Of a stretch of DNA of 46,180 bases, positions 1,737 to 12,220 are shown in pieces. Each line of letters begins with the position of its first letter. Position 1 is the stretch's first letter. The DNA comes from Lysobacterales bacterium. Lineage in GTDB: Bacteria; Pseudomonadota; Gammaproteobacteria; Xanthomonadales; SZUA-5. Under the pieces are notes generated by a model. The model had not been told where the DNA came from, did not search any database, and worked only from the letters and a program-made list of their open reading frames with translations. The position numbers and the translations under genes are program-made. Location of the stretch: positions 1-46,180 of the forward strand of contig JAGRJL010000025.1 in assembly GCA_020442775.1 (NCBI GenBank), in the 5' to 3' direction.

Positions 1737-2042
1737 TTACTCGAACTGGTCGGCGAAAATGGGGTCGCCCAGATCTCCGCAGGCCGCGTCCGGCGCCTGG
1801 CGCTGCTTGATCGTGAAGCGATCCTGGCCAAATCTGGGGGGTGCGTTCGTGCGCAGCTCAGCGCTTAAGGCATAGCGCCCTTCGCCCGGGCGCAGCTGTG
1901 CATCGATGCGAAATCGCGCCGATCCGGTGTCTGCCTGGTCGGCCCAGGCATACGCACCGGGCAGCGTCAGCGCCAGCATGACCAGCCACCGCATGCCCAA
2001 CCGTGGACTGGAGTCTGCTGCCAGTGATCCCTGAGCGGCCAT
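1737..2042 (-). CDS. Small secreted hypothetical protein ending in IFADQFE
   Basis: ATG 2042 lies 2 nt after the TGA (2045-2047) of the upstream tail-fibre-like gene (TGAGCATG). Alternative start ATG 1994 gives MRWLVMLALTLPGAYA, a textbook signal peptide. The C-terminus is ...CGDLGDPIFADQFE. Confidence 0.6.
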   Translation of the reverse strand: MAAQGSLAADSSPRLGMRWLVMLALTLPGAYAWADQADTGSARFRIDAQLRPGEGRYALSAELRTNAPPRFGQDRFTIKQRQAPDAACGDLGDPIFADQFE

Positions 2043-2044
2043 GC

Positions 2045-3913
2045 TCAGCGCCCTCCCGGGGCAAGCATCGATTCCAGGCGTGCCAGTCTAGCCTCATTGC
2101 GCGCCGCCGCCTCGCGCAGCGCGGCGTTGTCGCCGGCCAGCTGCCGCAGCTGACCATCCAGCAGCTTGCGCTCGGCTTCCAGCCGCAGCGCCAGCTCCTG
2201 CACCGCGGCGATAGTCGTGATCAGTGCCGGATGGACATCGACCTGCTGGATCTCGTTGGCGGCGGTGCGCTCGGCGTTGGGCAGGTACTCGCCCGAACCC
2301 TGCACTGCCTCGGGGAAGACCCGCGCGAACTCCTGGGCGATGACGTTGTAATAGGTCTGGTCGGCGATACCGGGATGGGCGGCGCGATAGGCCGCCGTGT
2401 AGCGAAACGTCACCGGGCGCAGGCGCAGCAGTCGCGCCAGGGCGTCGTCGATCTCCTGGACCTCGGTCTTGATGCGGGCGTCGGAGTTGGCCAGCCAGCT
2501 GCCTGAGGTGGTCTTGGAGGCATTGCCCTCGACTTCCAGGGTGTTGGTCTGCGGGTCGCGCGCAATGCCCAATCGTGAACCGGTACCGGCATCCTCCACG
2601 CGCAGCAGCAGTTCGTCGCCGCCACTCTGCACTTCGAAGGCCGAACCCGCGCCGGCGGCGGGGCCGGCAATGCGCCAGCGCGTGACTGCGCCGGAGAATC
2701 CCAAGGCCAGGAAGTTGCTCGTTCCATCGTTCTTGCCGATGTTCACATGGGAGGGCAATGGCGTGTTGGTGTTGAGTCCGAAGCCGTTCGCCGCGCGAAC
2801 AAGAAACTGGTTGGGCCCGCTGGAGGTGAAAGCCGAACCGGATTGGTCCGACCAGACGAAGGTGCCTTCGTCACCCTCGGCTGTCGCCGTTGTTGTTACG
2901 GCGACGCAACCGCTGCCAACGGCGCCTGAACTGGTGCCCGGGCGGATCTTGGCGAGATGTCCGCCAGCCCAGGAAAAGGCGCCACCAGCGCAGTTCTGAG
3001 CGCCACTGGCGACGCTGAATACGCCGCTCGCGGTGTTGTCGGTGCCTCCGAGCACACTGCTGCCACTGCCGCTCGCCGTGTTCAAGAAGCCGCCTGACAC
3101 GCTTGAATCCGCCGCGACCGCGGTATTGAAAGCGCCACCACCGACCGAGCTGCGAGTCCCGGAGGCGAGATTGATCCGACCACCCGCGACGGTAGCGAAG
3201 GCACTATCTGTCGCGCTTCCGGCGCCGTCGCCAGATTGGTTGGCAAAGCCTCCACCGACGGTGCCATAGTGATCGGTCACGCTATTGGGTGCTTCGTTTG
3301 AGAACAGCGGATCACTGTTCCCAGAGGGCACACCACCGCCCGCAATGGTCGCCCCGCGCACCCCACTGGTGGCGAGGTTGGCGCTGCTGCCGGCGATGAC
3401 GTTGGCGGTGATCGGAATCGAGTTGAACAGTTCGGCGCTGGGTTCCAGGCGCAGGCTGGCGGCGTTGCGGGTACGCAACACCAGCGGCTGCGCATCGGTG
3501 GTGCCGAGGAAGTTGGTCGCCGGATTGCTGCCCGCATCCCCGGCCGTGCTCCAGCACTGCCCGATGGTGCCGCTGACCGCCTTGCTGCGGCCGGGGATCG
3601 CGCTGAAGTCGGTCCCGCCCTGTTCGCGCACCGCGGCTTCGATCCAGACGTCGTCGGTCTCGGCCAGCGGCAGCTCGACCTCGAGCCGGAACTGACCGTC
3701 GACGACCGGCACCGCGAAGAAGGTCGTAGGTGCCAGGACTATCGCGCCCAGGTGGCGTTCGCTGAAGGCGCCGACGCGCAGATCAAAGTGGCCGTTGGCC
3801 GGCTGACCGTAGTCATCCAGACGGCCTTCGTAGACGAAGGAGGCGGCCAGGGCCGGGCCTGCAGCGACGAACAGCATGGTGGAAGCGAGTGCGAGCTGAG
3901 GCGGTTGATACAT
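2045..3913 (-). CDS. Secreted tail-fibre-like protein with C-terminal peptidase S74 / intramolecular-chaperone autoprocessing domain (622 aa)
   Basis: From track ORF 2045..4039. Start set at ATG 3913 (MYQPPQLALASTMLFVAAGPALA, signal peptide). It contains FLGTTDAQPLVLRT and long Gly/Ser/Ala repeats (GG..N.ASG..S.V.GG) like fibre shafts. These are followed by NSDARIKTEV...LRPVTFRY...YNVIAQE...VDV, the hallmark of the endosialidase/tail-fibre chaperone domain, and then a terminal coiled coil. Confidence 0.85.
   Translation of the reverse strand: MYQPPQLALASTMLFVAAGPALAASFVYEGRLDDYGQPANGHFDLRVGAFSERHLGAIVLAPTTFFAVPVVDGQFRLEVELPLAETDDVWIEAAVREQGGTDFSAIPGRSKAVSGTIGQCWSTAGDAGSNPATNFLGTTDAQPLVLRTRNAASLRLEPSAELFNSIPITANVIAGSSANLATSGVRGATIAGGGVPSGNSDPLFSNEAPNSVTDHYGTVGGGFANQSGDGAGSATDSAFATVAGGRINLASGTRSSVGGGAFNTAVAADSSVSGGFLNTASGSGSSVLGGTDNTASGVFSVASGAQNCAGGAFSWAGGHLAKIRPGTSSGAVGSGCVAVTTTATAEGDEGTFVWSDQSGSAFTSSGPNQFLVRAANGFGLNTNTPLPSHVNIGKNDGTSNFLALGFSGAVTRWRIAGPAAGAGSAFEVQSGGDELLLRVEDAGTGSRLGIARDPQTNTLEVEGNASKTTSGSWLANSDARIKTEVQEIDDALARLLRLRPVTFRYTAAYRAAHPGIADQTYYNVIAQEFARVFPEAVQGSGEYLPNAERTAANEIQQVDVHPALITTIAAVQELALRLEAERKLLDGQLRQLAGDNAALREAAARNEARLARLESMLAPGGR
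2048..2485 (-). other. Peptidase S74 (intramolecular chaperone) domain; predicted self-cleavage at the Ser of SDARIK
   Basis: The Ser codon is at 2483-2485 (plus-strand gga). The 146 residues from SDARIKTEVQEIDD to the C-terminus carry the conserved S-D-x-R-x-K start and the downstream Lys context of S74 domains. Confidence 0.7.
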
Positions 3914-3999
3914 GGCGTCCTTGGTCTCCGGTTGGCGTTTGCCCGGCACGCTGTCGTGCAAGCGCCGGTTGCCGCTGATCATCGTTCGCTCAGGGCTGG

Positions 4000-4022
4000 C
4001 CGGGGTACCCCAAAACTTGGGT
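4000..4022 (-). promoter_or_regulatory. Dyad box copy 1, about 86 nt upstream of the tail-fibre-like gene
   Basis: The minus strand reads ACCCAAGTTTTGGGGTACCCCGG. It matches the copy at 6562-6584 at 21/23 positions and lies in non-coding DNA between 3913 and 4119. Confidence 0.55.
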
Positions 4023-4118
4023 GCCGTCGGTGGGTTCAAGCGCCGTCAGTGCGATGCGCTCCGGCTTCCGACTTGTTCAAGCCAGAAGGCTGAGATCACC
4101 GAGCGAACCGGCCTGGAC

Positions 4119-6500
4119 TCAGGGCAAACACTCCGGTCCCTCAAATCCATTGGCAAAGCGCTGGTCGCTCTGGCCGTCGAGAATCTCCACGTCGAGCTGG
4201 GCGAAGGGCAGCAGTGCCGCACCCATCACGTTGCTCAGGCTGACCCGGAAACGCTCTATCGGCTCGGGTAGCCCGTCTGCGGCAATTGGCACGTTGATCA
4301 GCTTGGCCGCGATGTCGCCTGGCGCCCACTGCAGCAGCTGATCGGGCGGCACCGTGTAGTCATCGCCTGGCGTGGCGCTGCCAGACGCGTGGGTGAAATC
4401 CACGCTGACGTCGGCCACCCCGCCGCTGGGACGCTCGACCCGGATCTGCGCGGTCTGCCCCTCCACCACGTTCTGGCGGCAGCGGGTAAAGCCGATTTGC
4501 TCCGGACCGGGTGCGGTCACCTCGTGCGGTTGGGTGATCACCACATCCTCCCCGGCGGCGCTGCCGAAGGCCCCCTGCAGGGTGCGGTAGCTGATGGTTA
4601 GCGTGCGGTTGCCGATCTGCACCGGCACCATTTGGCAACTGCCGCTGCTAGTGTTGGCAGTCATGGTTGGTGCCAGGGTCATGCTGCAGGTGGTCGGTGG
4701 CGAGGTGTTCATCGACACATCGACCACGCCATTGGGCTTGAACGGCCCGCTGGTGGCCAGCGCGGTGACCTCGATGGTGAAGGGCAGGCCGGCTGGATGT
4801 GGATCGGGCGTATCGACGGCGCTCAACGTGACCGTGTCGAAACTGAACTCACTGCTGCGGCCTTCGGCGTCGGTGGCGATGGCCACGATCACATCGTTGT
4901 TGCTCAGGGTGACACCGGGCGGAATGCTCAGCGTGACCGCCTTGTCCTGCTGCGCGTTCACCGAGGTGTAGACATCGCTGTCGAGCAGCACTTCGCCCTC
5001 GTCACCGAATGCCTTGTAGAAGTCCACGCGCAGTGGAAAAACGCTGTTGGCCGGGTCGGAATCGACCCGGTAGGTGACGCTGAACTGATTGACGTTGACG
5101 CTGTAGGCGGCGATGGTCGGGAAGTTCTGCAGATTGTTGGGCCCCACATCCGCATCGTCGGCATCGTTCGGAGTGCGCCCCAGCACCTGGTTGTTGCCGC
5201 CGTCAAGGGTCGGCAGATCCAGGCCGATGCCGTCGTTGCCGAGCATGCGGTTGCCGACGAATTCGATGAAAGTGGGCGCATTGCGGTCGAGCACATACAC
5301 CGCAGAACCGAGCGAAGTTGCCGTAGAGGAACGGCGCAAGCCACCGGCGAAGGTGTTGCCCTCGCCCGGAGCGAATCCGCCGATCAGCAGCCGCGCCTGG
5401 CGGCCACTGCCGGCCAGGACGACCCGGATATGGTCCTTCTCCACGCCGACCACGGAGCCGTCCACGCCGAGGCCAAAGACGTTGCCCTGGATCAAGGCGA
5501 AGTCGTCCATCACGCGACTGACCGAGACCTCCAGGGCGCTGCCGAAGTCGGCACTGCTGCGTTGCGCGCGCGCGAAGCGATTGTCCAGGATGCGCGTATC
5601 GGGGGTCTGGAAGGCGTCGTCACCGGGGTCGACAGCGAAGGGGTCGCGCATCGGCAAGGCGGTGATGCCATCGGGCGCCAACCCGATCAGATTGCCCTGC
5701 AGAATCAGCTGCCCGCGCTGGCCGGAACTGCTCCTGGCTCGTAGTCTGTTGGTGCCGCCGAAGGGCAGCCCGGCCCCATTGCGACCGCCGCCTGCAATGA
5801 CGTTGCGGTCGGACGGATCGGGGCCGCCCACGCGGACCGAGCGCATGCTCAAGCCACTCAGATCCAGCGCGCTGCAGGGCGGGCCGAAGTCCGGCGACTG
5901 ACCGAGTGCGTCGACGCAGAACCAGTTGCCACGGTGGTCATGGGCGAAGCCACCGGTGACGATGGCTGAAGTCGGCAGCGTGATGGCCAGACCGCGCAGA
6001 CTGAAGGGGCTGGCGCTGCTGCTGGTCAGGTTGAACAGAGCCAGACCGAAGTTGACAAAACCGGCGCTGACGATCTCGATCTTCAGCTGGGCGTTGTTGG
6101 CGCCTGGAGCGGGAATGCTGTTCGGCTGGGCGCCCGGTTGGGTATAGCCGTCGATGGTCAATCCCTGAGAGATCTGCAGCGTGCTGGCCACCTCGATACG
6201 GCAAATGCCGGTGACCGCGCTGCAGCCCGGCTCGCTGGTCGGGATGTTGAACTCAATGATGTCGGGGCCGGCCAGACCGTTGCTCGCGCTGATAGCCCCG
6301 CGCAGGGAGCAGTCGGCCGCAGCGGCAGTACAGGCGCTGAGGTTGAGCAGGTCCGAAGTGGTGTCGACGGTCAGCGTGGCGGCTGGGGTTGCGCTCGCAA
6401 GCATGATGCCAAGCACGACTGCACCAGCGGCCCTCTGTACGGACATTTGCCGAGGCCTCGACAACGCTCCCTGAAGCGAGCTGATGGATTTTCGGTTCAT
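4119..6500 (-). CDS. Secreted CSLREA-domain / parallel beta-helix protein with C-terminal Calx-beta domain (793 aa)
   Basis: From track ORF 4119..6575. Start set at ATG 6500 (MNRKSISS...VVLGIMLASATPAA signal region; ATG 6446 is also possible). The N-terminus TLTVDTTSD...CSLRGAISASN...IIEFNIP matches the CSLREA motif family. The C-terminus VDFTHASGSATPGDDYTV...INVPIAADGLPEPIERFRVSLS is Calx-beta. The protein ends in RFANGFEGPECLP. Confidence 0.85.
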   Translation of the reverse strand: MNRKSISSLQGALSRPRQMSVQRAAGAVVLGIMLASATPAATLTVDTTSDLLNLSACTAAAADCSLRGAISASNGLAGPDIIEFNIPTSEPGCSAVTGICRIEVASTLQISQGLTIDGYTQPGAQPNSIPAPGANNAQLKIEIVSAGFVNFGLALFNLTSSSASPFSLRGLAITLPTSAIVTGGFAHDHRGNWFCVDALGQSPDFGPPCSALDLSGLSMRSVRVGGPDPSDRNVIAGGGRNGAGLPFGGTNRLRARSSSGQRGQLILQGNLIGLAPDGITALPMRDPFAVDPGDDAFQTPDTRILDNRFARAQRSSADFGSALEVSVSRVMDDFALIQGNVFGLGVDGSVVGVEKDHIRVVLAGSGRQARLLIGGFAPGEGNTFAGGLRRSSTATSLGSAVYVLDRNAPTFIEFVGNRMLGNDGIGLDLPTLDGGNNQVLGRTPNDADDADVGPNNLQNFPTIAAYSVNVNQFSVTYRVDSDPANSVFPLRVDFYKAFGDEGEVLLDSDVYTSVNAQQDKAVTLSIPPGVTLSNNDVIVAIATDAEGRSSEFSFDTVTLSAVDTPDPHPAGLPFTIEVTALATSGPFKPNGVVDVSMNTSPPTTCSMTLAPTMTANTSSGSCQMVPVQIGNRTLTISYRTLQGAFGSAAGEDVVITQPHEVTAPGPEQIGFTRCRQNVVEGQTAQIRVERPSGGVADVSVDFTHASGSATPGDDYTVPPDQLLQWAPGDIAAKLINVPIAADGLPEPIERFRVSLSNVMGAALLPFAQLDVEILDGQSDQRFANGFEGPECLP

Positions 6501-6561
6501 TGTTCGAATCCTCGCGGCGCCGATGCCAGCAGATGCGCAATGCTGGGTTAGGCGACGGAGT

Positions 6562-6613
6562 CCGCGGTACCCCAAAACTGGGGTGTCGAACCCCTGGATT
6601 GGGGTATCCGCGG
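6562..6613. promoter_or_regulatory. Head-to-head double copy of the dyad box in the divergent promoter region (CSLREA gene / response-regulator operon)
   Basis: CCGCGGTACCCCAAAACTGGGGT (6562-6584), spacer GTCGA, then ACCCCTGGATTGGGGTATCCGCGG (6590-6613). Read toward its own gene, each copy is ACCCC-N6-GGGGTA(T)CCGCGG. Confidence 0.55.
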
Positions 6614-6661
6614 CACCGTCTGTGGGCGCACCATAGCGACGGCGCAGGAGCGGAGGGCTCC

Positions 6662-7339
6662 ATGGAGAGCGGTGTGACTGTGGCAGCGAATTCGGTGGGT
6701 GTGGTGGTGGTGGAAGACGAGCCGGGGACGCGCGAACGGCTGGCCTCGATCATTGCCGCGCAGACCGGCTTTCATCTGCTCGGCGCGGTCGGCTCCCTGA
6801 CTGCGGCGCGTCAGTTGCTGCAGCAAATCGAGCCCGATGTGGTGCTGCTTGATCTGGGACTCCCCGATGGCAGCGGGTTGGCATTGCTGGAGGACAAGCG
6901 CCGTCAGGGCCTGGTGTTCGAGGTGCTGGTGATCTCGGTACTGGGTGATGAGCGCAGCGTGCTGGCGGCGATTGAAGCCGGCGCCGGGGGCTACTTGCTC
7001 AAGGACGCTGACAACGCCGCGGTGGCTCGCGCAATCGTGCAGCTACGCGAGGGCGGTGCACCCTTGAGCCCGACCATTGCAGTCCACCTGATGCGCAGGC
7101 TGCAGGCGCCGGTTGGTCGCACGTCCGAGTCCGAGTCTCTGGGCCTGAGCCCGCGTGAGCTGGAACTGCTGCGCCTGATCGCCAAGGGCCTGTCCTACGA
7201 GGAGGTCGCTCAGGTGTTGGGTCTGCGCTACAACACCATCACCTCCTACGCCAAGGAGCTCTATCGCAAGCTGCAGGTGCATTCCCGCGCGGAAGCGGTT
7301 TTCGAGGCACAGCAGCTGGGGCTGGTCGGGGATCGATGA
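6662..7339 (+). CDS. NarL/FixJ (LuxR-type HTH) response regulator (225 aa)
   Basis: ATG 6662 is preceded by GGAGCGGAGGG. Receiver motifs: VVVVEDEPG...VVLLDLGLPDGSG. C-terminal LuxR HTH: LSPRELELLRLIAKGLSYEEVAQVLGLRYNTITSYAKELYRKL. Confidence 0.9.
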   Translation: MESGVTVAANSVGVVVVEDEPGTRERLASIIAAQTGFHLLGAVGSLTAARQLLQQIEPDVVLLDLGLPDGSGLALLEDKRRQGLVFEVLVISVLGDERSVLAAIEAGAGGYLLKDADNAAVARAIVQLREGGAPLSPTIAVHLMRRLQAPVGRTSESESLGLSPRELELLRLIAKGLSYEEVAQVLGLRYNTITSYAKELYRKLQVHSRAEAVFEAQQLGLVGDR

Positions 7340-7361: not shown

Positions 7362-9218
7362 TTGAGGCTGGCTGCGTTGCGGGCTCAGCTGTGGTGGCTG
7401 GTGCCGGCGCTGCTCGCGCTGACGCTGGCCAGCCTCCGCGATCATCGTCTGCTGGACCGGTGGCTGCTTTCTGCAGGGCAATTCACCGATTGCGAAGGCG
7501 CCGCTGAGTGGCAGGACAGCGCGGTGCCGCGACTATTGCCGGGACAGGAATGTCGGCTCTGGCGGCTACCTTTTGAACTGGACCCGGCAGATTCGGCTGA
7601 GCAGCTGCTGGTGCTGACCGGATTTGGTCGGGATGCGCGGATCTGGATCAACGGCCAGCCCCTGCGTGATTTCGATTCCGGCTGGGGAGTGGACTACACC
7701 TCCATTCCGCAACGGCTGGCATTGCCGCCGGCGTGGCTGCGCAGTGGCCAAAACGAGCTGCGCCTGGAGTTGCACAGCGGCAGCAGCGATTACGACCGCA
7801 GCTACGTCGGCCGGGTGCTGCTGGGTCCGGCGAGCGTGCTCGAGGCACGCTTCGCGCAAATGCGCCGGCTCGGTCAGCAGGCCGCCCAGGTGTCGATCGT
7901 CTTCGCCATAGCAATTGCGCTGATGGTGCTGCCTATTGCCTGGTCCCGGCCCAGGCAGCGCAGCTATCGCTGGTTCGCGCTGGCGGTGCTGAGCAGCCAG
8001 CTGTTCGTATGGAACATGGGCTGGCCGCTGCGCCCCTTGCCGCACTTGCTGTGGCACACGGTGGCGCACGCCGGGCTCGCTATCGCGCTGTGGGCCCTGC
8101 TGCGCTACACGCTGTCGGTGAGCGATGCTCCCCGGGCGGCTGAGCGGCGGGTCAATCGGATCAGCGCGCTGGCGCTTGCGGCTCTGCTCTTGCGCTTGCT
8201 CGATCCGCGCGGCGAATGGGCCATGCTCTCGGTTGCGGGCGATTCGATTTACAGAATCGTCCTGCTGCTGCAGTTGCTGCAGCTGGGCTGGCTGTGGTGG
8301 CGCCAGCGCGGTCCAGCAAATCCGGTGGCGCGCTGGCTGGCGGCGGGCGCCGGTCTGACCCTGCTGGTCGGGATTGCCGACAGTCTGCGCGCCTACGGGA
8401 TCTACACCGGCGCGCTGACGCCCTACCTGCAGCACTGGGGGATCATGTATGTGCTGATCACCCTGCTGGTGGAACAGCTGCGGCAAGTGCTGGCCGCATT
8501 GTCGGCCGCCGAGGATGCCAAGATCCATCTGGGCGCAGCGCTGGCCCAACGCAGCGCCGAACTGCAGCACGAGTTCGCCCTGCGCCAGCAGGCCGAGCAG
8601 GCGCGCACCCTGGCCGAGGAACGGCAGCGACTGATGCGCGACATGCATGACGGCGTCGGTGGTCATCTGGTCGCGCTGATCGGCCAGCTGGAGGCGGGGC
8701 GCTCGGAGCCTGAGATTCTCAAGCCGCAACTGCGCAGTACGCTGGACGACCTGCGCCTGATGATCGACTCGCTCGACGATGCCTGCGCCGACCTCAGCGT
8801 AGCCCTCGGGATGCTGCGTCAGCGCCTGCAGCCGGGGCTCACCGGCCTCGATCTGCAGGTGCGCTGGAACACCGCTCACCTGCCTGATCTGGCACCGTGC
8901 TCTCCGGACGTGGTGCTGCAGGTGCTCAGGATCCTGCAGGAGGCGATCACCAACGCGGTCAAGCACGCGCGCTGCCGGCAGATCGAGATCGATGCCGCCT
9001 GGGTCAACGGCGAACTCAATCTGAGCGTCAGCGACGACGGCGCCGGACTCGACCCCGCGGCTGAGCCGGGGCGTGGGGTTCCCGGCATGCGCCAGCGTGC
9101 GGCACGGATCGGCGCTCGGCTGAGCTGGTCGACCCAAGACCCGGGTACCCGGGTGACGCTGGTCTTGCCTGGCGTCATCCCGGTGCAAATCGACGGTTGC
9201 CGACAGGCGCAAGCCTGA
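7362..9218 (+). CDS. Sensor histidine kinase: periplasmic domain + ~7 TM helices + HisKA_3 + HATPase_c
   Basis: TTG start at 7362 (no in-frame ATG nearby, so the start is uncertain). Order of elements: signal/TM, extracytoplasmic domain, about seven hydrophobic helices, H-box MRDMHDGVGGHLVAL (HisKA_3 type that pairs with NarL regulators), then ILQEAITNAVKHA...VSDDGAGL ATPase motifs. Confidence 0.85.
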   Translation: MRLAALRAQLWWLVPALLALTLASLRDHRLLDRWLLSAGQFTDCEGAAEWQDSAVPRLLPGQECRLWRLPFELDPADSAEQLLVLTGFGRDARIWINGQPLRDFDSGWGVDYTSIPQRLALPPAWLRSGQNELRLELHSGSSDYDRSYVGRVLLGPASVLEARFAQMRRLGQQAAQVSIVFAIAIALMVLPIAWSRPRQRSYRWFALAVLSSQLFVWNMGWPLRPLPHLLWHTVAHAGLAIALWALLRYTLSVSDAPRAAERRVNRISALALAALLLRLLDPRGEWAMLSVAGDSIYRIVLLLQLLQLGWLWWRQRGPANPVARWLAAGAGLTLLVGIADSLRAYGIYTGALTPYLQHWGIMYVLITLLVEQLRQVLAALSAAEDAKIHLGAALAQRSAELQHEFALRQQAEQARTLAEERQRLMRDMHDGVGGHLVALIGQLEAGRSEPEILKPQLRSTLDDLRLMIDSLDDACADLSVALGMLRQRLQPGLTGLDLQVRWNTAHLPDLAPCSPDVVLQVLRILQEAITNAVKHARCRQIEIDAAWVNGELNLSVSDDGAGLDPAAEPGRGVPGMRQRAARIGARLSWSTQDPGTRVTLVLPGVIPVQIDGCRQAQA

Positions 9219-9304: not shown

Positions 9305-12220
9305 TCAGGCGGCCTCCACCACCACCCGGTTCTTTCCCTGGGCCTTGCCGTGCAGCAGGCATTCGTCCGCGCGATTGATCGCCTGAATCGCATCTTCGCC
9401 GGGGCGTCGGCGTGACAGACCGATGGTGACGGTGATCTTGGGCAGCGGCCGGGTGGCAGCCAGCGGTTGGCTGGAAACGGCCTGGCGCACACGCTCGGCA
9501 ACTTCCAGTGCTTCCGCGTCGGTGGCGTCACGGACACAGAAGATGAACTCCTCGCCACCCCAGCGAGCGGCCAGATCCTCATCCTCACGGACCGCGCCGC
9601 GCAGACAGTCGGCCAGATGCTTGAGCACCAGATCGCCGACGTCGTGGCCGTAGATGTCGTTGAAGGACTTGAAATTATCGGCGTCGATGAGTGCGTAATG
9701 TTCTTCTTCGGGCGCCGGCGACTCGTCGATTCGGCTGAGGAATCCGCGGCGGTTGAGCAGCCCGGTGAGGTAGTCGGTGAAGGCAGCGACCGCGAGTGAG
9801 GCATTGGCCTCGCGCAGGGCTTCGGTCTGCCGTTCCACCTCACCCTGCAACATCCGGTTGCGCATCCGGATCCGCTGGGTGTGCCACATGGTCCAGAGCC
9901 AGCCAATGATCAGGACCGAGAATGCCCCGGCGATCTGGCCCCAGGCGGTTTGCCACCAGGCCGGCAGCACGTCGATGGGGAGCTGGGTCACTTCTCTGCC
10001 CCACAGGCCGTTGCCGCTGGCGGCCTGCAGTTCGAACAGGTAGTGACCGGGCTTGAGACCACTGAGCAGCGCCTCCGGGGTGGCGCTCACCCGACTCCAG
10101 TCCTTGCCGGAATCGCCCTGCAGACGCCAGCGGAAGCGGTTGGCGCTGGCGTGGCGGTAATCGGCGGCGATGTAGCGCAGACGCAGGCTGGCGACGCCGG
10201 AGGGAACCTGCAGGGCTTGCTCGGGGTTCAGCGCCAGCGGATTGCCGTCGGCCCAGGCGCCCACCACGGCTGCCGAGGGCGGTTTCAGCGACAGCGCAAC
10301 CTGCTCGGGCTCGAAACTGACAAAGCCACCCAGTCCACCGAAATAGATTCGCCCATCGGCCCCTTCGTCGCCGGAGCGCGCGTAGAACTCGTCCACCACC
10401 AGGCCGTCAGTGGTGCCGAACCGGGTGGTAGAGCGGTGGTCCAGATCGATCGCGATCACTCCACGGGTGGTGGCCGCCCACAGTCGTCCGCCGCCGAGGG
10501 CCAGACGCTGCACCGCGGTGTTGGGATAGTCCGGGATCAGCACCAGCTGCTCGTTGCTTTCCTGCTTGAGATCGAATGCCGTCAGCCCGAAGCTGGTCGC
10601 GGCCCAGATCAAATCCCCGGACAGCAGCAGGTCGTGCAGGGTGCCGTCGATGCCCAGCTTGTCGCGATCGAGTGCTTCGCGCTGACCATCGGCGCGAATG
10701 TGTACCGCGCCGGCCTCCCACAGTGCCAGCCAGATGCCGCCGTTGCCGTCCGCTTCGATGTCGGCAATCGAAGTGGCCGGGAGCTCGGCCGCAGCGCCGG
10801 CAGTCAGATGCGCGCGCAGCCCTTCCGGGCCATAGCGGAACAACCCGTCGGCCCAGGTTCCCACATCAATCTGACCGTCCTCACTTACCCTGAGCGCAGT
10901 GACCATCAGCTCCCGAACTTCGGCAAAGCGTGGGTCCGGCGCGAGGGTCCCGGTCGCCGGATCGAAGCGAAAAATGCCCATGCCGGTGCCCACCAGTACC
11001 CGGTCGCCTTCGCGACGCATGCGGATCACCGGATTGGCATCCGAACCGGAGATATGCTCGAAGCGATTCTCGCCGTCGATCTGGCGCAGGCGCCACAGTC
11101 CGCGGCGGGAACCAATCAGAATGTCGTCGCTGGCCAGTTCCAGCATCGCGTCAACCGTATCGAGTTCCGAGTCCAGACGATAGCCGTCAAATCCGGACAC
11201 CGTGGGCTGAACCTTGATTGCGCCCGCTTCGCGGGTGGCGAGCCAGCTGACGCCCCCCTCATCGACATGAAAGGCGCGAATGTTTCGTTCAGGGAACATC
11301 ACCGGATCGCTGCTGCCGAAGGGACCGATGATCCGTCCCTCGGGGCTGACCGAGCGGACCCCGGCGAGGGTGCCGATCAGGATCTCGCCGTCCGGGCCCT
11401 GCGCCAGGGTGTTCACCAGGGGCAGATCGCTGATCACCCGCTTCGGCACCTGCCCCGGCACCGCCCCGTAGACCGCGCCTTCGTCGCCCACCCACAGCTG
11501 CTCGGCGGCAAACACCAGCGCGCGCGGGTGATTGAGCCAGCCCTCGGCAGGCGCCGGCAACAGCCTGCCGCTGTGCACCTCGTGCACGCCTTCCGCATCG
11601 GCCAGCCAGAGTTGCCCCGAAGGCCCGGTAGACAACGACCAGACCCGGGAAAACGGGCGCCCATCGGGCCGGTTGACCGGCGTCGCCTCGCTGCCGCCCG
11701 GTTCCAGGCGAAACAGGCCTGCATCGGCCGAACCGACCCAGATGCTGCCGCTGGCATCCTCGGTCATGATCTGGATGTTTCTCGGTGCGGCGTTCGGATT
11801 CAGGTGTTCAAAGCTGCCGTCCAGGTCGGTGAGGCGATTCAGTCCGCCGCCCCAGGTGCCGATCAGCACCTCGCCCCGGGAGGTCGCCAGCACCTGCCCG
11901 GCAGCAGAATTGGTCAGCGACAGCGGATCCTGCGGCTGGTGGACGAAGAACTGGATCTGATAACCGTCGTAGACATTGGCGCCGCCGGCCGCGCTGCCCA
12001 GCCAGATCCGTCCCAGTTGATCCTGGCTGATGCTGAAGATGGTCGAATCGGAGAGTCCATCGGACAGGCTCAGGCTTTCCACATGAGTGGTGCTACGGGC
12101 GGTCCAGATCGGCGGCTCCGCCGATGCGGGCGAGAGCGTCGGCAGGCCGGCCACAAGCAGCCAGCAGAGCAGGGTCTGCAGCAATCGATTGGCTGATGTG
12201 GCGCTCACTCGCTCGCTCAC
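9305..12220 (-). CDS. Periplasmic two-component-regulator-propeller / Y_Y_Y sensor diguanylate cyclase (971 aa)
   Basis: GTG start at 12220 with a signal peptide (LLCWLLVAGLPTLSPASA). Repeated W.G...GL propeller blades, then a Y_Y_Y-like segment (LRLRYIAADYRH...GHYLFELQA), one TM helix and a GGDEF domain with an intact active site (ARWGGEEFIF). The I-site position reads EDED rather than RxxD. Confidence 0.9.
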   Translation of the reverse strand: MSERVSATSANRLLQTLLCWLLVAGLPTLSPASAEPPIWTARSTTHVESLSLSDGLSDSTIFSISQDQLGRIWLGSAAGGANVYDGYQIQFFVHQPQDPLSLTNSAAGQVLATSRGEVLIGTWGGGLNRLTDLDGSFEHLNPNAAPRNIQIMTEDASGSIWVGSADAGLFRLEPGGSEATPVNRPDGRPFSRVWSLSTGPSGQLWLADAEGVHEVHSGRLLPAPAEGWLNHPRALVFAAEQLWVGDEGAVYGAVPGQVPKRVISDLPLVNTLAQGPDGEILIGTLAGVRSVSPEGRIIGPFGSSDPVMFPERNIRAFHVDEGGVSWLATREAGAIKVQPTVSGFDGYRLDSELDTVDAMLELASDDILIGSRRGLWRLRQIDGENRFEHISGSDANPVIRMRREGDRVLVGTGMGIFRFDPATGTLAPDPRFAEVRELMVTALRVSEDGQIDVGTWADGLFRYGPEGLRAHLTAGAAAELPATSIADIEADGNGGIWLALWEAGAVHIRADGQREALDRDKLGIDGTLHDLLLSGDLIWAATSFGLTAFDLKQESNEQLVLIPDYPNTAVQRLALGGGRLWAATTRGVIAIDLDHRSTTRFGTTDGLVVDEFYARSGDEGADGRIYFGGLGGFVSFEPEQVALSLKPPSAAVVGAWADGNPLALNPEQALQVPSGVASLRLRYIAADYRHASANRFRWRLQGDSGKDWSRVSATPEALLSGLKPGHYLFELQAASGNGLWGREVTQLPIDVLPAWWQTAWGQIAGAFSVLIIGWLWTMWHTQRIRMRNRMLQGEVERQTEALREANASLAVAAFTDYLTGLLNRRGFLSRIDESPAPEEEHYALIDADNFKSFNDIYGHDVGDLVLKHLADCLRGAVREDEDLAARWGGEEFIFCVRDATDAEALEVAERVRQAVSSQPLAATRPLPKITVTIGLSRRRPGEDAIQAINRADECLLHGKAQGKNRVVVEAA

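Follow-up and report, generated by a model that had tools for sequence, protein, structure and literature searches.

A conserved 16-bp palindrome as the predicted operator of a NarL-type two-component system in uncultured Lysobacterales

Among the closest described parallels to the locus analyzed here is the Escherichia coli regulator NarL at the yeaR promoter, where the center of a 16-bp site with a 7-2-7 layout lies at -43.5, shortly before the -35 element, and NarL bound there activates transcription (PMC10853779). Activation at yeaR follows a non-canonical class II mode, in which the RNA polymerase alpha subunit has its C-terminal domain (alpha-CTD) placed between the two NarL monomers, in the A/T minor groove at the center of the site; at the ogt promoter, NarL sites lie at -44.5 and -77.5 (PMC10853779). 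Here we describe a 16-bp palindrome, ACCCC-N6-GGGGT (hereafter the box), which occurs three times in a 46,180-nt stretch of DNA from a Lysobacterales bacterium (the window). One copy precedes a gene for a secreted protein with a Peptidase_S74 domain, one precedes a gene for an exported Calx-beta protein, and one precedes a two-component operon that encodes a NarL/FixJ-family response regulator (6662-7339) and a sensor kinase (7362-9218). The box is probably the operator of this regulator and would act by class II-like activation of weak sigma-70 promoters, the regulator's own promoter included, so that the system would be positively autoregulated.

The likeness to NarL at yeaR and ogt (PMC10853779, PMC7419079) extends to both protein and DNA. 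The regulator combines a receiver domain (REC) with a GerE-type helix-turn-helix (HTH) and is paired with a HisKA_3-type kinase, and its putative site is a 16-bp inverted repeat with C-rich half-sites and an A/T center, predicted to lie just upstream of the -35 region. The two systems differ in their half-sites (ACCCCAG here, TACYYMT for NarL), in their sensors (a 7TMR-DISM kinase here, NarX/NarQ for NarL), and in their targets (surface proteins here, respiration genes for NarL), and the position of the box relative to the transcription start is deduced here from a -10-like hexamer rather than from a mapped start. The LuxR/TraR-type activators share the HTH_LuxR fold and likewise have a palindromic box of 16-20 bp that replaces the -35 element, and the core of the tra box resembles the CAG-NN-CTG found here. 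Their lux and tra boxes are class II-type sites near -42.5, and positive autoregulatory loops are common among them, but their box sequences are different, and they carry an autoinducer-binding domain where the present regulator would be controlled by REC phosphorylation. The second- and third-best structural relatives by sequence, at ~30% identity, are DevR/DosR of Mycobacterium tuberculosis and VraR of Staphylococcus aureus, NarL-family regulators with palindromic boxes, autoregulated two-component operons, and small dedicated regulons; box sequences, signals, and regulons differ from those considered here. On the sensor side, LadS and RetS of Pseudomonas aeruginosa place the same seven-helix membrane module (PF07695) behind a periplasmic domain. 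These proteins control surface and biofilm traits and, as hybrid kinases, act through the Gac/Rsm pathway, whereas the kinase of the window is a plain HisKA_3 enzyme paired with a DNA-binding regulator. A literature search on CSLREA, on 7TMR-DISM in combination with NarL, and on the half-site sequence found no description of the present system. The proposed mechanism is well precedented; NarL-type systems are commonly found to be autoregulated and to have palindromic boxes.

Sequence, specificity, and conservation of the box

The three copies of the box (Table 1) are best read as ACCCCAG-TT-CTGGGGT, a 7-2-7 layout. In their extended form, on the strand that reads toward the downstream gene, they are ACCCAAGTTTTGGGGTACCCCGG (4022-4000), ACCCCAGTTTTGGGGTACCGCGG (6584-6562), and ACCCCTGGATTGGGGTATCCGCGG (6590-6613), located 86, 61, and 48 nt before the start codons at 3913, 6500, and 6662, respectively. 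Between boxes 2 and 3 lies GTCGA (6585-6589), which gives them a center-to-center distance of 21 bp. The first-pass annotation of this DNA, made from the sequence alone, had given these copies, coordinates, distances, and spacer exactly as we find them. In the alignment of the sites, information content extends exactly over positions 1-16 and A17, with the consensus ACCCCAG-TT-CTGGGGT. The box is slightly directional: its center is A/T-rich with an oriented TT that falls on the coding strand in most sites, and in 22 of 34 the base next to the proximal half-site, on its far side from the center, is an A. An alternative 7-4-7 register (TACCCCA-N4-TGGGGTA) was dropped, as the distal flanking T is not conserved and the 16-bp 7-2-7 register fits better.

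The box is specific to these promoters in its genome. Within the window, ACCC-N7-GGGGTA with at most one mismatch gives 9 strand-hits against 1.35 expected, a count not reached in any of 100 shuffles. As contig C141, the window belongs to a metagenome-assembled genome (MAG) of 5.16 Mb (63.6% G+C, 856 contigs, 84% complete), and throughout this assembly the 19-nt consensus with up to three mismatches finds boxes 1 and 2 only; box 3 is a four-mismatch match, beside six other four-mismatch hits. A weight matrix trained on 31 sites, all from other genomes, ranks the three window sites at the top of the 5.16 Mb (scores in Table 1), followed by a hit at 17.9. The reversed-genome control of this matrix has a maximum of 19.6, so that the next-best hit lies inside the control range and box 3, taken alone, is not significant without its context. 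The earlier statement that the window holds no further copy thus extends, by both consensus and matrix, to the entire assembly, and the scan does not place the box at dozens of unrelated sites. The bare pattern ACCCC-N6-GGGGT proved unspecific as a query, with 0-7 chance copies per genome that have G+C-rich spacers, about as many as in the backwards control; an 18-mer and the matrix were therefore used instead. One such look-alike lies near a 47%-identical regulator homolog in G005, from a genus of 55% G+C (G005:C64:11110; L144:5111-5126). It has the same core as the box, yet reads GAAAAA-ACCCCGAATTTGGGGT-TTTAGG, a bidirectional terminator-like hairpin with A and T runs on its flanks, and it illustrates the false positives that the bare pattern yields.

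The box is conserved upstream of the regulator in relatives. Regulator orthologs of 63-72% identity, found in other Lysobacterales MAGs, are preceded by a box with 0-2 mismatches to ACCCC-N6-GGGGT, a few tens of nt upstream, in ten genomes (G007, G009, G012, G015, G016, G020, G022, G042, and the MAGs L031 and L032). A BLAST search of the 201-nt intergenic region against 40 relatives returned nothing useful, the region being too diverged, and it is this divergence that makes the conserved box stand out. When the orthologous intergenic regions are aligned at the box, an analysis that the first-pass annotation had proposed, the adjoining positions carry almost no information, and the box therefore qualifies as a genuine phylogenetic footprint. 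More distant regulator homologs, at 53% identity or less (Rubrivivax and other Burkholderiales, Actinoplanes and other actinomycetes, and others), have no box.

Box and regulator also occur together. The family comprises 27 genomes, and a regulator ortholog is present in 11 of them: the genome of the window (G000), seven of the nine genomes of genus g8, and all three of genus g6. The 18-mer ACCCCAGTTTTGGGGTAC, with up to two mismatches, occurs in 10 of these 11 and in none of the 16 genomes that lack the ortholog; the eleventh, G016, has perfect 16-mers that differ from the 18-mer at three positions, a count to which two flank positions contribute. These 16 genomes include the two others of the window's genus, G001 and G002, and two of the nine genomes of g8; the orthologs outside the window thus belong to other genera of the family. 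Because the pattern changes within genera (G000 versus G001 and G002; G013 and G024 versus the rest of g8), the co-occurrence does not stem from a single evolutionary event. G024 keeps a 62%-identical Calx-beta ortholog and has neither the regulator ortholog nor the box.

The regulator, its promoters, and competing explanations

The regulator belongs to the NarL/FixJ family by its domains. Its receiver domain (PF00072, 66 bits, residues 14-124) keeps the EDE...LLDLGLP...KD residues in an alignment to E. coli NarL (1a04), its closest solved structure, and its HTH matches PF00196 (54.3 bits, residues 162-214). A LuxR-type quorum-sensing regulator was considered and rejected, the N-terminus being a receiver domain and not an autoinducer-binding domain. 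The HisKA_3 kinase gene (PF07730, PF02518) begins 23 nt downstream, and the same pair is found at all orthologous loci. Among the NCBIfam equivalogs, the regulator scores 111 bits against NarL (NF007935; cutoff 250), 107 against NarP (cutoff 343), and 115.6 against MadR (cutoff 300); with all three scores below the cutoffs, it is not an ortholog of any curated equivalog. The HTH segment GL(R/K)YNT(I/V)(T/A)SYAKELYRKLQVHSR is nearly invariant among orthologs and different in the paralogs of the same genomes. A dimer of the regulator would bind the box, to judge from the conserved 16-bp palindrome that adjoins its gene.

A second conserved element lies at a fixed distance from the box. With 34 sites oriented toward their genes, an nAnnnT hexamer starts 23-24 nt after the last box base on the gene side in 34 of 34, on the mirror side in 2 of 34, and at other offsets in 0-7 of 34. 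The hexamer consensus is CAGCAT, with variants that include CAACAT, CAAGAT, CACGAT, GATGAT, and TAAACT. An A at the second and a T at the sixth position (A-11 and T-7) are the hallmarks of a sigma-70 -10 element. If the hexamer is taken as -12 to -7, the box falls at -51/-50 to -36/-35, with its center at -43.5 or -42.5. Neither a canonical sigma-70 promoter in 3880-6700 nor a -35 match at the target promoters was found. At several of the relatives' regulator promoters, the box is followed without a gap by TTGCCT or TTT, a -35-like feature that would allow basal expression of the regulator. At the regulator promoters (window 6619-6634; L015, L016, L025, L031, L035, L142, and L007), the sequence TGGCGCA(G/C)CAT, at about -17 to -7, is conserved upstream of the gene in 9 of 11 genomes; this conservation reaches well past the -10 hexamer, farther than at the target promoters, and the sequence could be an extended core-promoter element or the site of a second factor. 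A sigma-54 reading of the conserved TGGCGCAGCAT in these promoters was rejected, the GG-N10-GC spacing being absent; spacing and box symmetry likewise speak against RpoH or extracytoplasmic function (ECF) sigma factors.

The proposed mechanism can be divided into three steps. First, the kinase would phosphorylate the regulator, in response to a signal that it presumably senses. Second, a dimer of the phosphorylated regulator would bind the box, centered ~42.5-43.5 bp upstream of the start, at promoters predicted to be weak sigma-70 promoters with a CAGCAT-like -10 element that retains A-11 and T-7 and with no usable -35 element. Third, the bound dimer would bring in RNA polymerase by a class II-like mode, the one used by E. 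coli NarL at yeaR. Three promoters would be driven in this way: that of the regulator-kinase operon, which would create positive feedback, that of the CSLREA/Calx-beta gene, and that of the S74-type gene together with the small gene downstream of it. In relatives, the same box would drive other giant surface proteins with Calx-beta, Ig-like, and FG-GAP domains. That the box is an operator of the adjacent NarL/LuxR-type regulator had been proposed in the first-pass annotation, and the comparative evidence supports this prediction through the footprint, the co-occurrence across 27 genomes, the invariant recognition helix, the fixed hexamer distance, and the genomic specificity.

Several observations weigh against this assignment. 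The residues through which NarL contacts DNA, Lys188, Val189, and Lys192, align to T, S, and K (tVKVHVK in NarL, tITSYAK in the regulator), so that the similarity of the half-sites may be convergent. The regulator ortholog of G018 has no recognizable box upstream of its own gene. Conversely, a Calx-beta paralog in G023 is preceded by a box-like site and a correctly placed hexamer, and no regulator ortholog of at least 60% identity was found in that genome, a MAG that is only 72% complete and whose 45%-identical regulator homologs have a similar recognition helix (YSTVVSYVRDIYRKL). The genomes compared are related to one another and hence not independent, and the co-occurrence count makes the support look stronger than it is. 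Finally, a box that abuts the -35 position could repress instead of activating.

The assignment to a different transcription factor, encoded elsewhere and with the adjacent regulator as a merely co-regulated target, is the best surviving of the competing explanations, although we regard it as unlikely. Adjacency and co-occurrence are correlative, and both the G018 regulator gene without a box and the plausible G023 box without a close ortholog fit this explanation. Against it, gains and losses of the box coincide with those of the regulator ortholog in at least three parts of the family, and the site used by a GerE/NarL-type dimer is just such a 16-bp palindrome, with a 7-2-7 layout and at -43.5. 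Moreover, the neighbors in the cluster are TPR, PD40, and surface proteins, and the cluster has no second DNA-binding gene that is conserved.

The adjacent regulator could also bind the box as a repressor or autorepressor that occludes RNA polymerase at the -35 region, for which we see a slim chance. The box does abut or overlap the -35 position, and the -35-like hexamer (TTGCCT/TTT) in the regulator promoters of several relatives means that these might fire without an activator. The target promoters, however, combine the lack of a -35 match with a weak -10 element that has C at -12, as is typical of activator-dependent promoters. A fixed gap of 22-23 nt between box and hexamer is needed for activation that depends on the face of the helix and not for occlusion, and NarL at -43.5 is an activator.

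A role at the RNA level, with the palindrome forming a hairpin in the 5' leaders (for stability, attenuation, or processing), or an origin as a repetitive extragenic palindromic (REP)-type or terminator element, is very improbable. It is true that ACCCCAGUUUUGGGGU folds as a 6-bp hairpin and that the G005 look-alike is a genuine terminator-like hairpin. Across 23 distinct box sequences, however, there is no covariation (score 0.043, compared with a mean of 0.052 for shuffles), and one-sided changes break the pairs 5/12 and 6/11 in 6 and 12 of the 23, respectively. Fold z-scores are unremarkable (-1.95 to +0.11), no T-tract follows the window copies, and a terminator scan finds none. With the -10-like hexamer downstream, the box lies upstream of the predicted start and should not be transcribed, and the hairpin alternative raised in the first-pass annotation is thus disfavored. 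The genome holds three copies only, and a REP-type element or a miniature inverted-repeat transposable element (MITE) was rejected on the same ground, since the 5.16 Mb contain just these three and each related genome has 1-6, every one of them at the predicted regulon.

Equally improbable is a bipartite promoter of an alternative (e.g., ECF) sigma factor, the other option raised earlier: two conserved elements at a fixed distance and the lack of a sigma-70 consensus promoter would suit it, but the upstream element differs from sigma -35 elements in being a symmetric palindrome of 16 bp, the 22-23 nt from GGGGT to the hexamer exceed the spacers of sigma-70 family promoters, the clusters contain no conserved gene for a sigma or anti-sigma factor, and the hexamer keeps A-11 and T-7.

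Genes and arrangement of the locus

Features of the locus are collected in Table 1.

Table 1. Features of the box-bearing locus, in window coordinates.
Feature	Position	Strand	Basis
Small exported protein, 101 aa, directly downstream of the S74 gene	1737..2042	-	same place in G009, G022
Target gene 1 (predicted): secreted protein, 622 aa, Gly-rich shaft, C-terminal Peptidase_S74 chaperone domain	2045..3913	-	Pfam PF13884, 50.6 bits
Predicted -10 GATGAT, S74 promoter; start probably near 3971	3978..3983	-	hexamer starts 24 nt after box
Box 1, predicted operator of the S74-type gene, ACCCAAGTTTTGGGGT toward gene	4007..4022	-	leave-out matrix score 28.9
Target gene 2 (predicted): exported protein, 793 aa, CSLRGA motif, C-terminal Calx-beta domain	4119..6500	-	Pfam PF03160, 35.2 bits
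Predicted -10 CAGCAT, Calx-beta promoter; predicted start near 6533	6540..6545	-	hexamer spacing
Box 2, predicted operator of the Calx-beta gene, ACCCCAGTTTTGGGGT	6569..6584	-	matrix score 29.0
Box 3, predicted operator of the regulator-kinase operon, ACCCCTGGATTGGGGT	6590..6605	+	matrix score 18.4-20.4
Predicted -10 CACCAT, regulator promoter; predicted start near 6641	6629..6634	+	hexamer spacing
NarL/FixJ-family response regulator, REC + GerE/LuxR HTH, 225 aa, proposed box-binding protein	6662..7339	+	Pfam PF00072, PF00196
Cognate sensor kinase: periplasmic domain, 7TMR-DISM seven-helix membrane module, HisKA_3, HATPase_c	7362..9218	+	Pfam PF07695, PF07730, PF02518
Reg_prop/Y_Y_Y GGDEF protein	9305-12220	-	domain assignment

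The Calx-beta protein matches no NCBIfam model at E <= 0.001, the CSLREA domain model included, and its motif reads CSLRGA rather than CSLREA; the CSLREA label in the first-pass annotation rests on the motif only, since no such model matches. The 101-aa gene is probably co-transcribed with the S74 gene. Its product has no family match, and the gene follows an S74-type gene after a 2-nt gap in G000, in G009 (L015:2635-2940), and in G022 (L016:2280-2585); the protein may be a partner of the fiber-like protein. The periplasmic domain of the kinase has no significant Pfam match, and a galactose-binding fold, suggested by a weak hit (E = 0.24), is not significant and was set aside.

The head-to-head pair of boxes is particular to this lineage. 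In four relatives, G007 (L025), G009 (L015), G022 (L016), and G042 (L142), the regulator-kinase operon lies in one region with the Calx-beta cluster and is co-directional with it; one to three genes, including one for a TPR protein, separate the two, and operon and cluster each have their own box. In the window (6562-6626), the operon is inverted relative to the four relatives and directly abuts the Calx-beta gene, and the box pair is therefore best seen as the result of a lineage-specific rearrangement. The first-pass annotation had instead suggested an inverted duplication of ~30 nt, since the flank CCGTCGGTGGG (4024-4034) recurs as CCGTCTGTGGG (6616-6626). The comparison does not support this suggestion. 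Seen from the gene, the two flank copies are on different sides of their boxes, 1 and 10 nt away, and orthologous S74 promoters do not conserve the flank CCGTC(G/T)GTGGG; for each box there are orthologous counterparts, as expected of ancient elements, so a duplication is not needed. We treat the recurrence of the flank as a coincidence or as part of the regulator core promoter (GTGGGCGCACCAT).

The predicted regulon in relatives and its meaning

The first-pass annotation had proposed an autoregulated regulator in control of two large secreted proteins. Comparison across genomes supports this as a prediction for the window and indicates a wider set of targets in relatives. Calx-beta orthologs of 75-78% identity in G009, G018, G022, and G007 are all preceded by a box, as are homologous Calx-beta genes of G012 and G042, and G007 has two box-bearing Calx-beta genes. 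The S74 orthologs of G022 and G007 have a box of their own. Further boxes precede genes for giant proteins (1239, at least 1718, at least 1478, and 2547 aa) with Calx-beta, Ig-like (Big), and FG-GAP domains in G018, G016, and G041, and for a conserved protein of ~940 aa without a Pfam match in G007, G009, and G042.

Three of these loci call for separate mention. The second Calx-beta paralog of G007 (G007:C3:277686-280011; L138) is split by an in-frame TGA near query residue 600 and retains its box; the split may reflect a pseudogene, a frameshift, or an error in the assembly. On contig C1 of G018, two giant-protein genes 8.4 kb apart (L017:5320 and L017:13746) have nearly identical boxes, spacers, leaders, and N-termini, which indicates a recent tandem duplication of a gene under predicted box control. 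The site in G023 (contig C75; L117:3474-3489, L145:5532-5547) reads ACCCCAGTAACGGGGT, is followed 23 nt on by a CAAGCT hexamer, and lies ~87 nt upstream of the 40%-identical Calx-beta paralog; a diverged sister system in that genus may use a similar box.

On a speculative note, kinase, regulator, and box might form a self-amplifying, all-or-none 'surface-coat switch' that is patchily inherited in this uncultured Lysobacterales family. Such a switch, for which the signal might be an extracellular carbohydrate or calcium cue, would deploy giant Calx-beta/Ig-like adhesins together with a secreted S74 protein that carries a self-cleaving chaperone and resembles a domesticated phage tail fiber, and in the window the back-to-back boxes, 21 bp or two helical turns apart, might allow one tetramer to fire both divergent promoters. 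We offer this picture tentatively and would not be surprised to see it fail.

No concept is changed by the finding. It does illustrate how the unusual geometry of NarL, a 7-2-7 site that is here placed at -43.5 by the hexamer, appears to recur with another half-site and with other residues in the recognition helix, which would be useful for the study of specificity in the NarL/FixJ family and for orthogonal synthetic promoters. For the organisms themselves, a two-component system of uncultured soil and water Lysobacterales gains a precise predicted wiring diagram, with a putative 16-bp operator, three promoters with predicted starts, and predicted positive autoregulation, and with a predicted regulon that consists of large secreted or surface proteins only.

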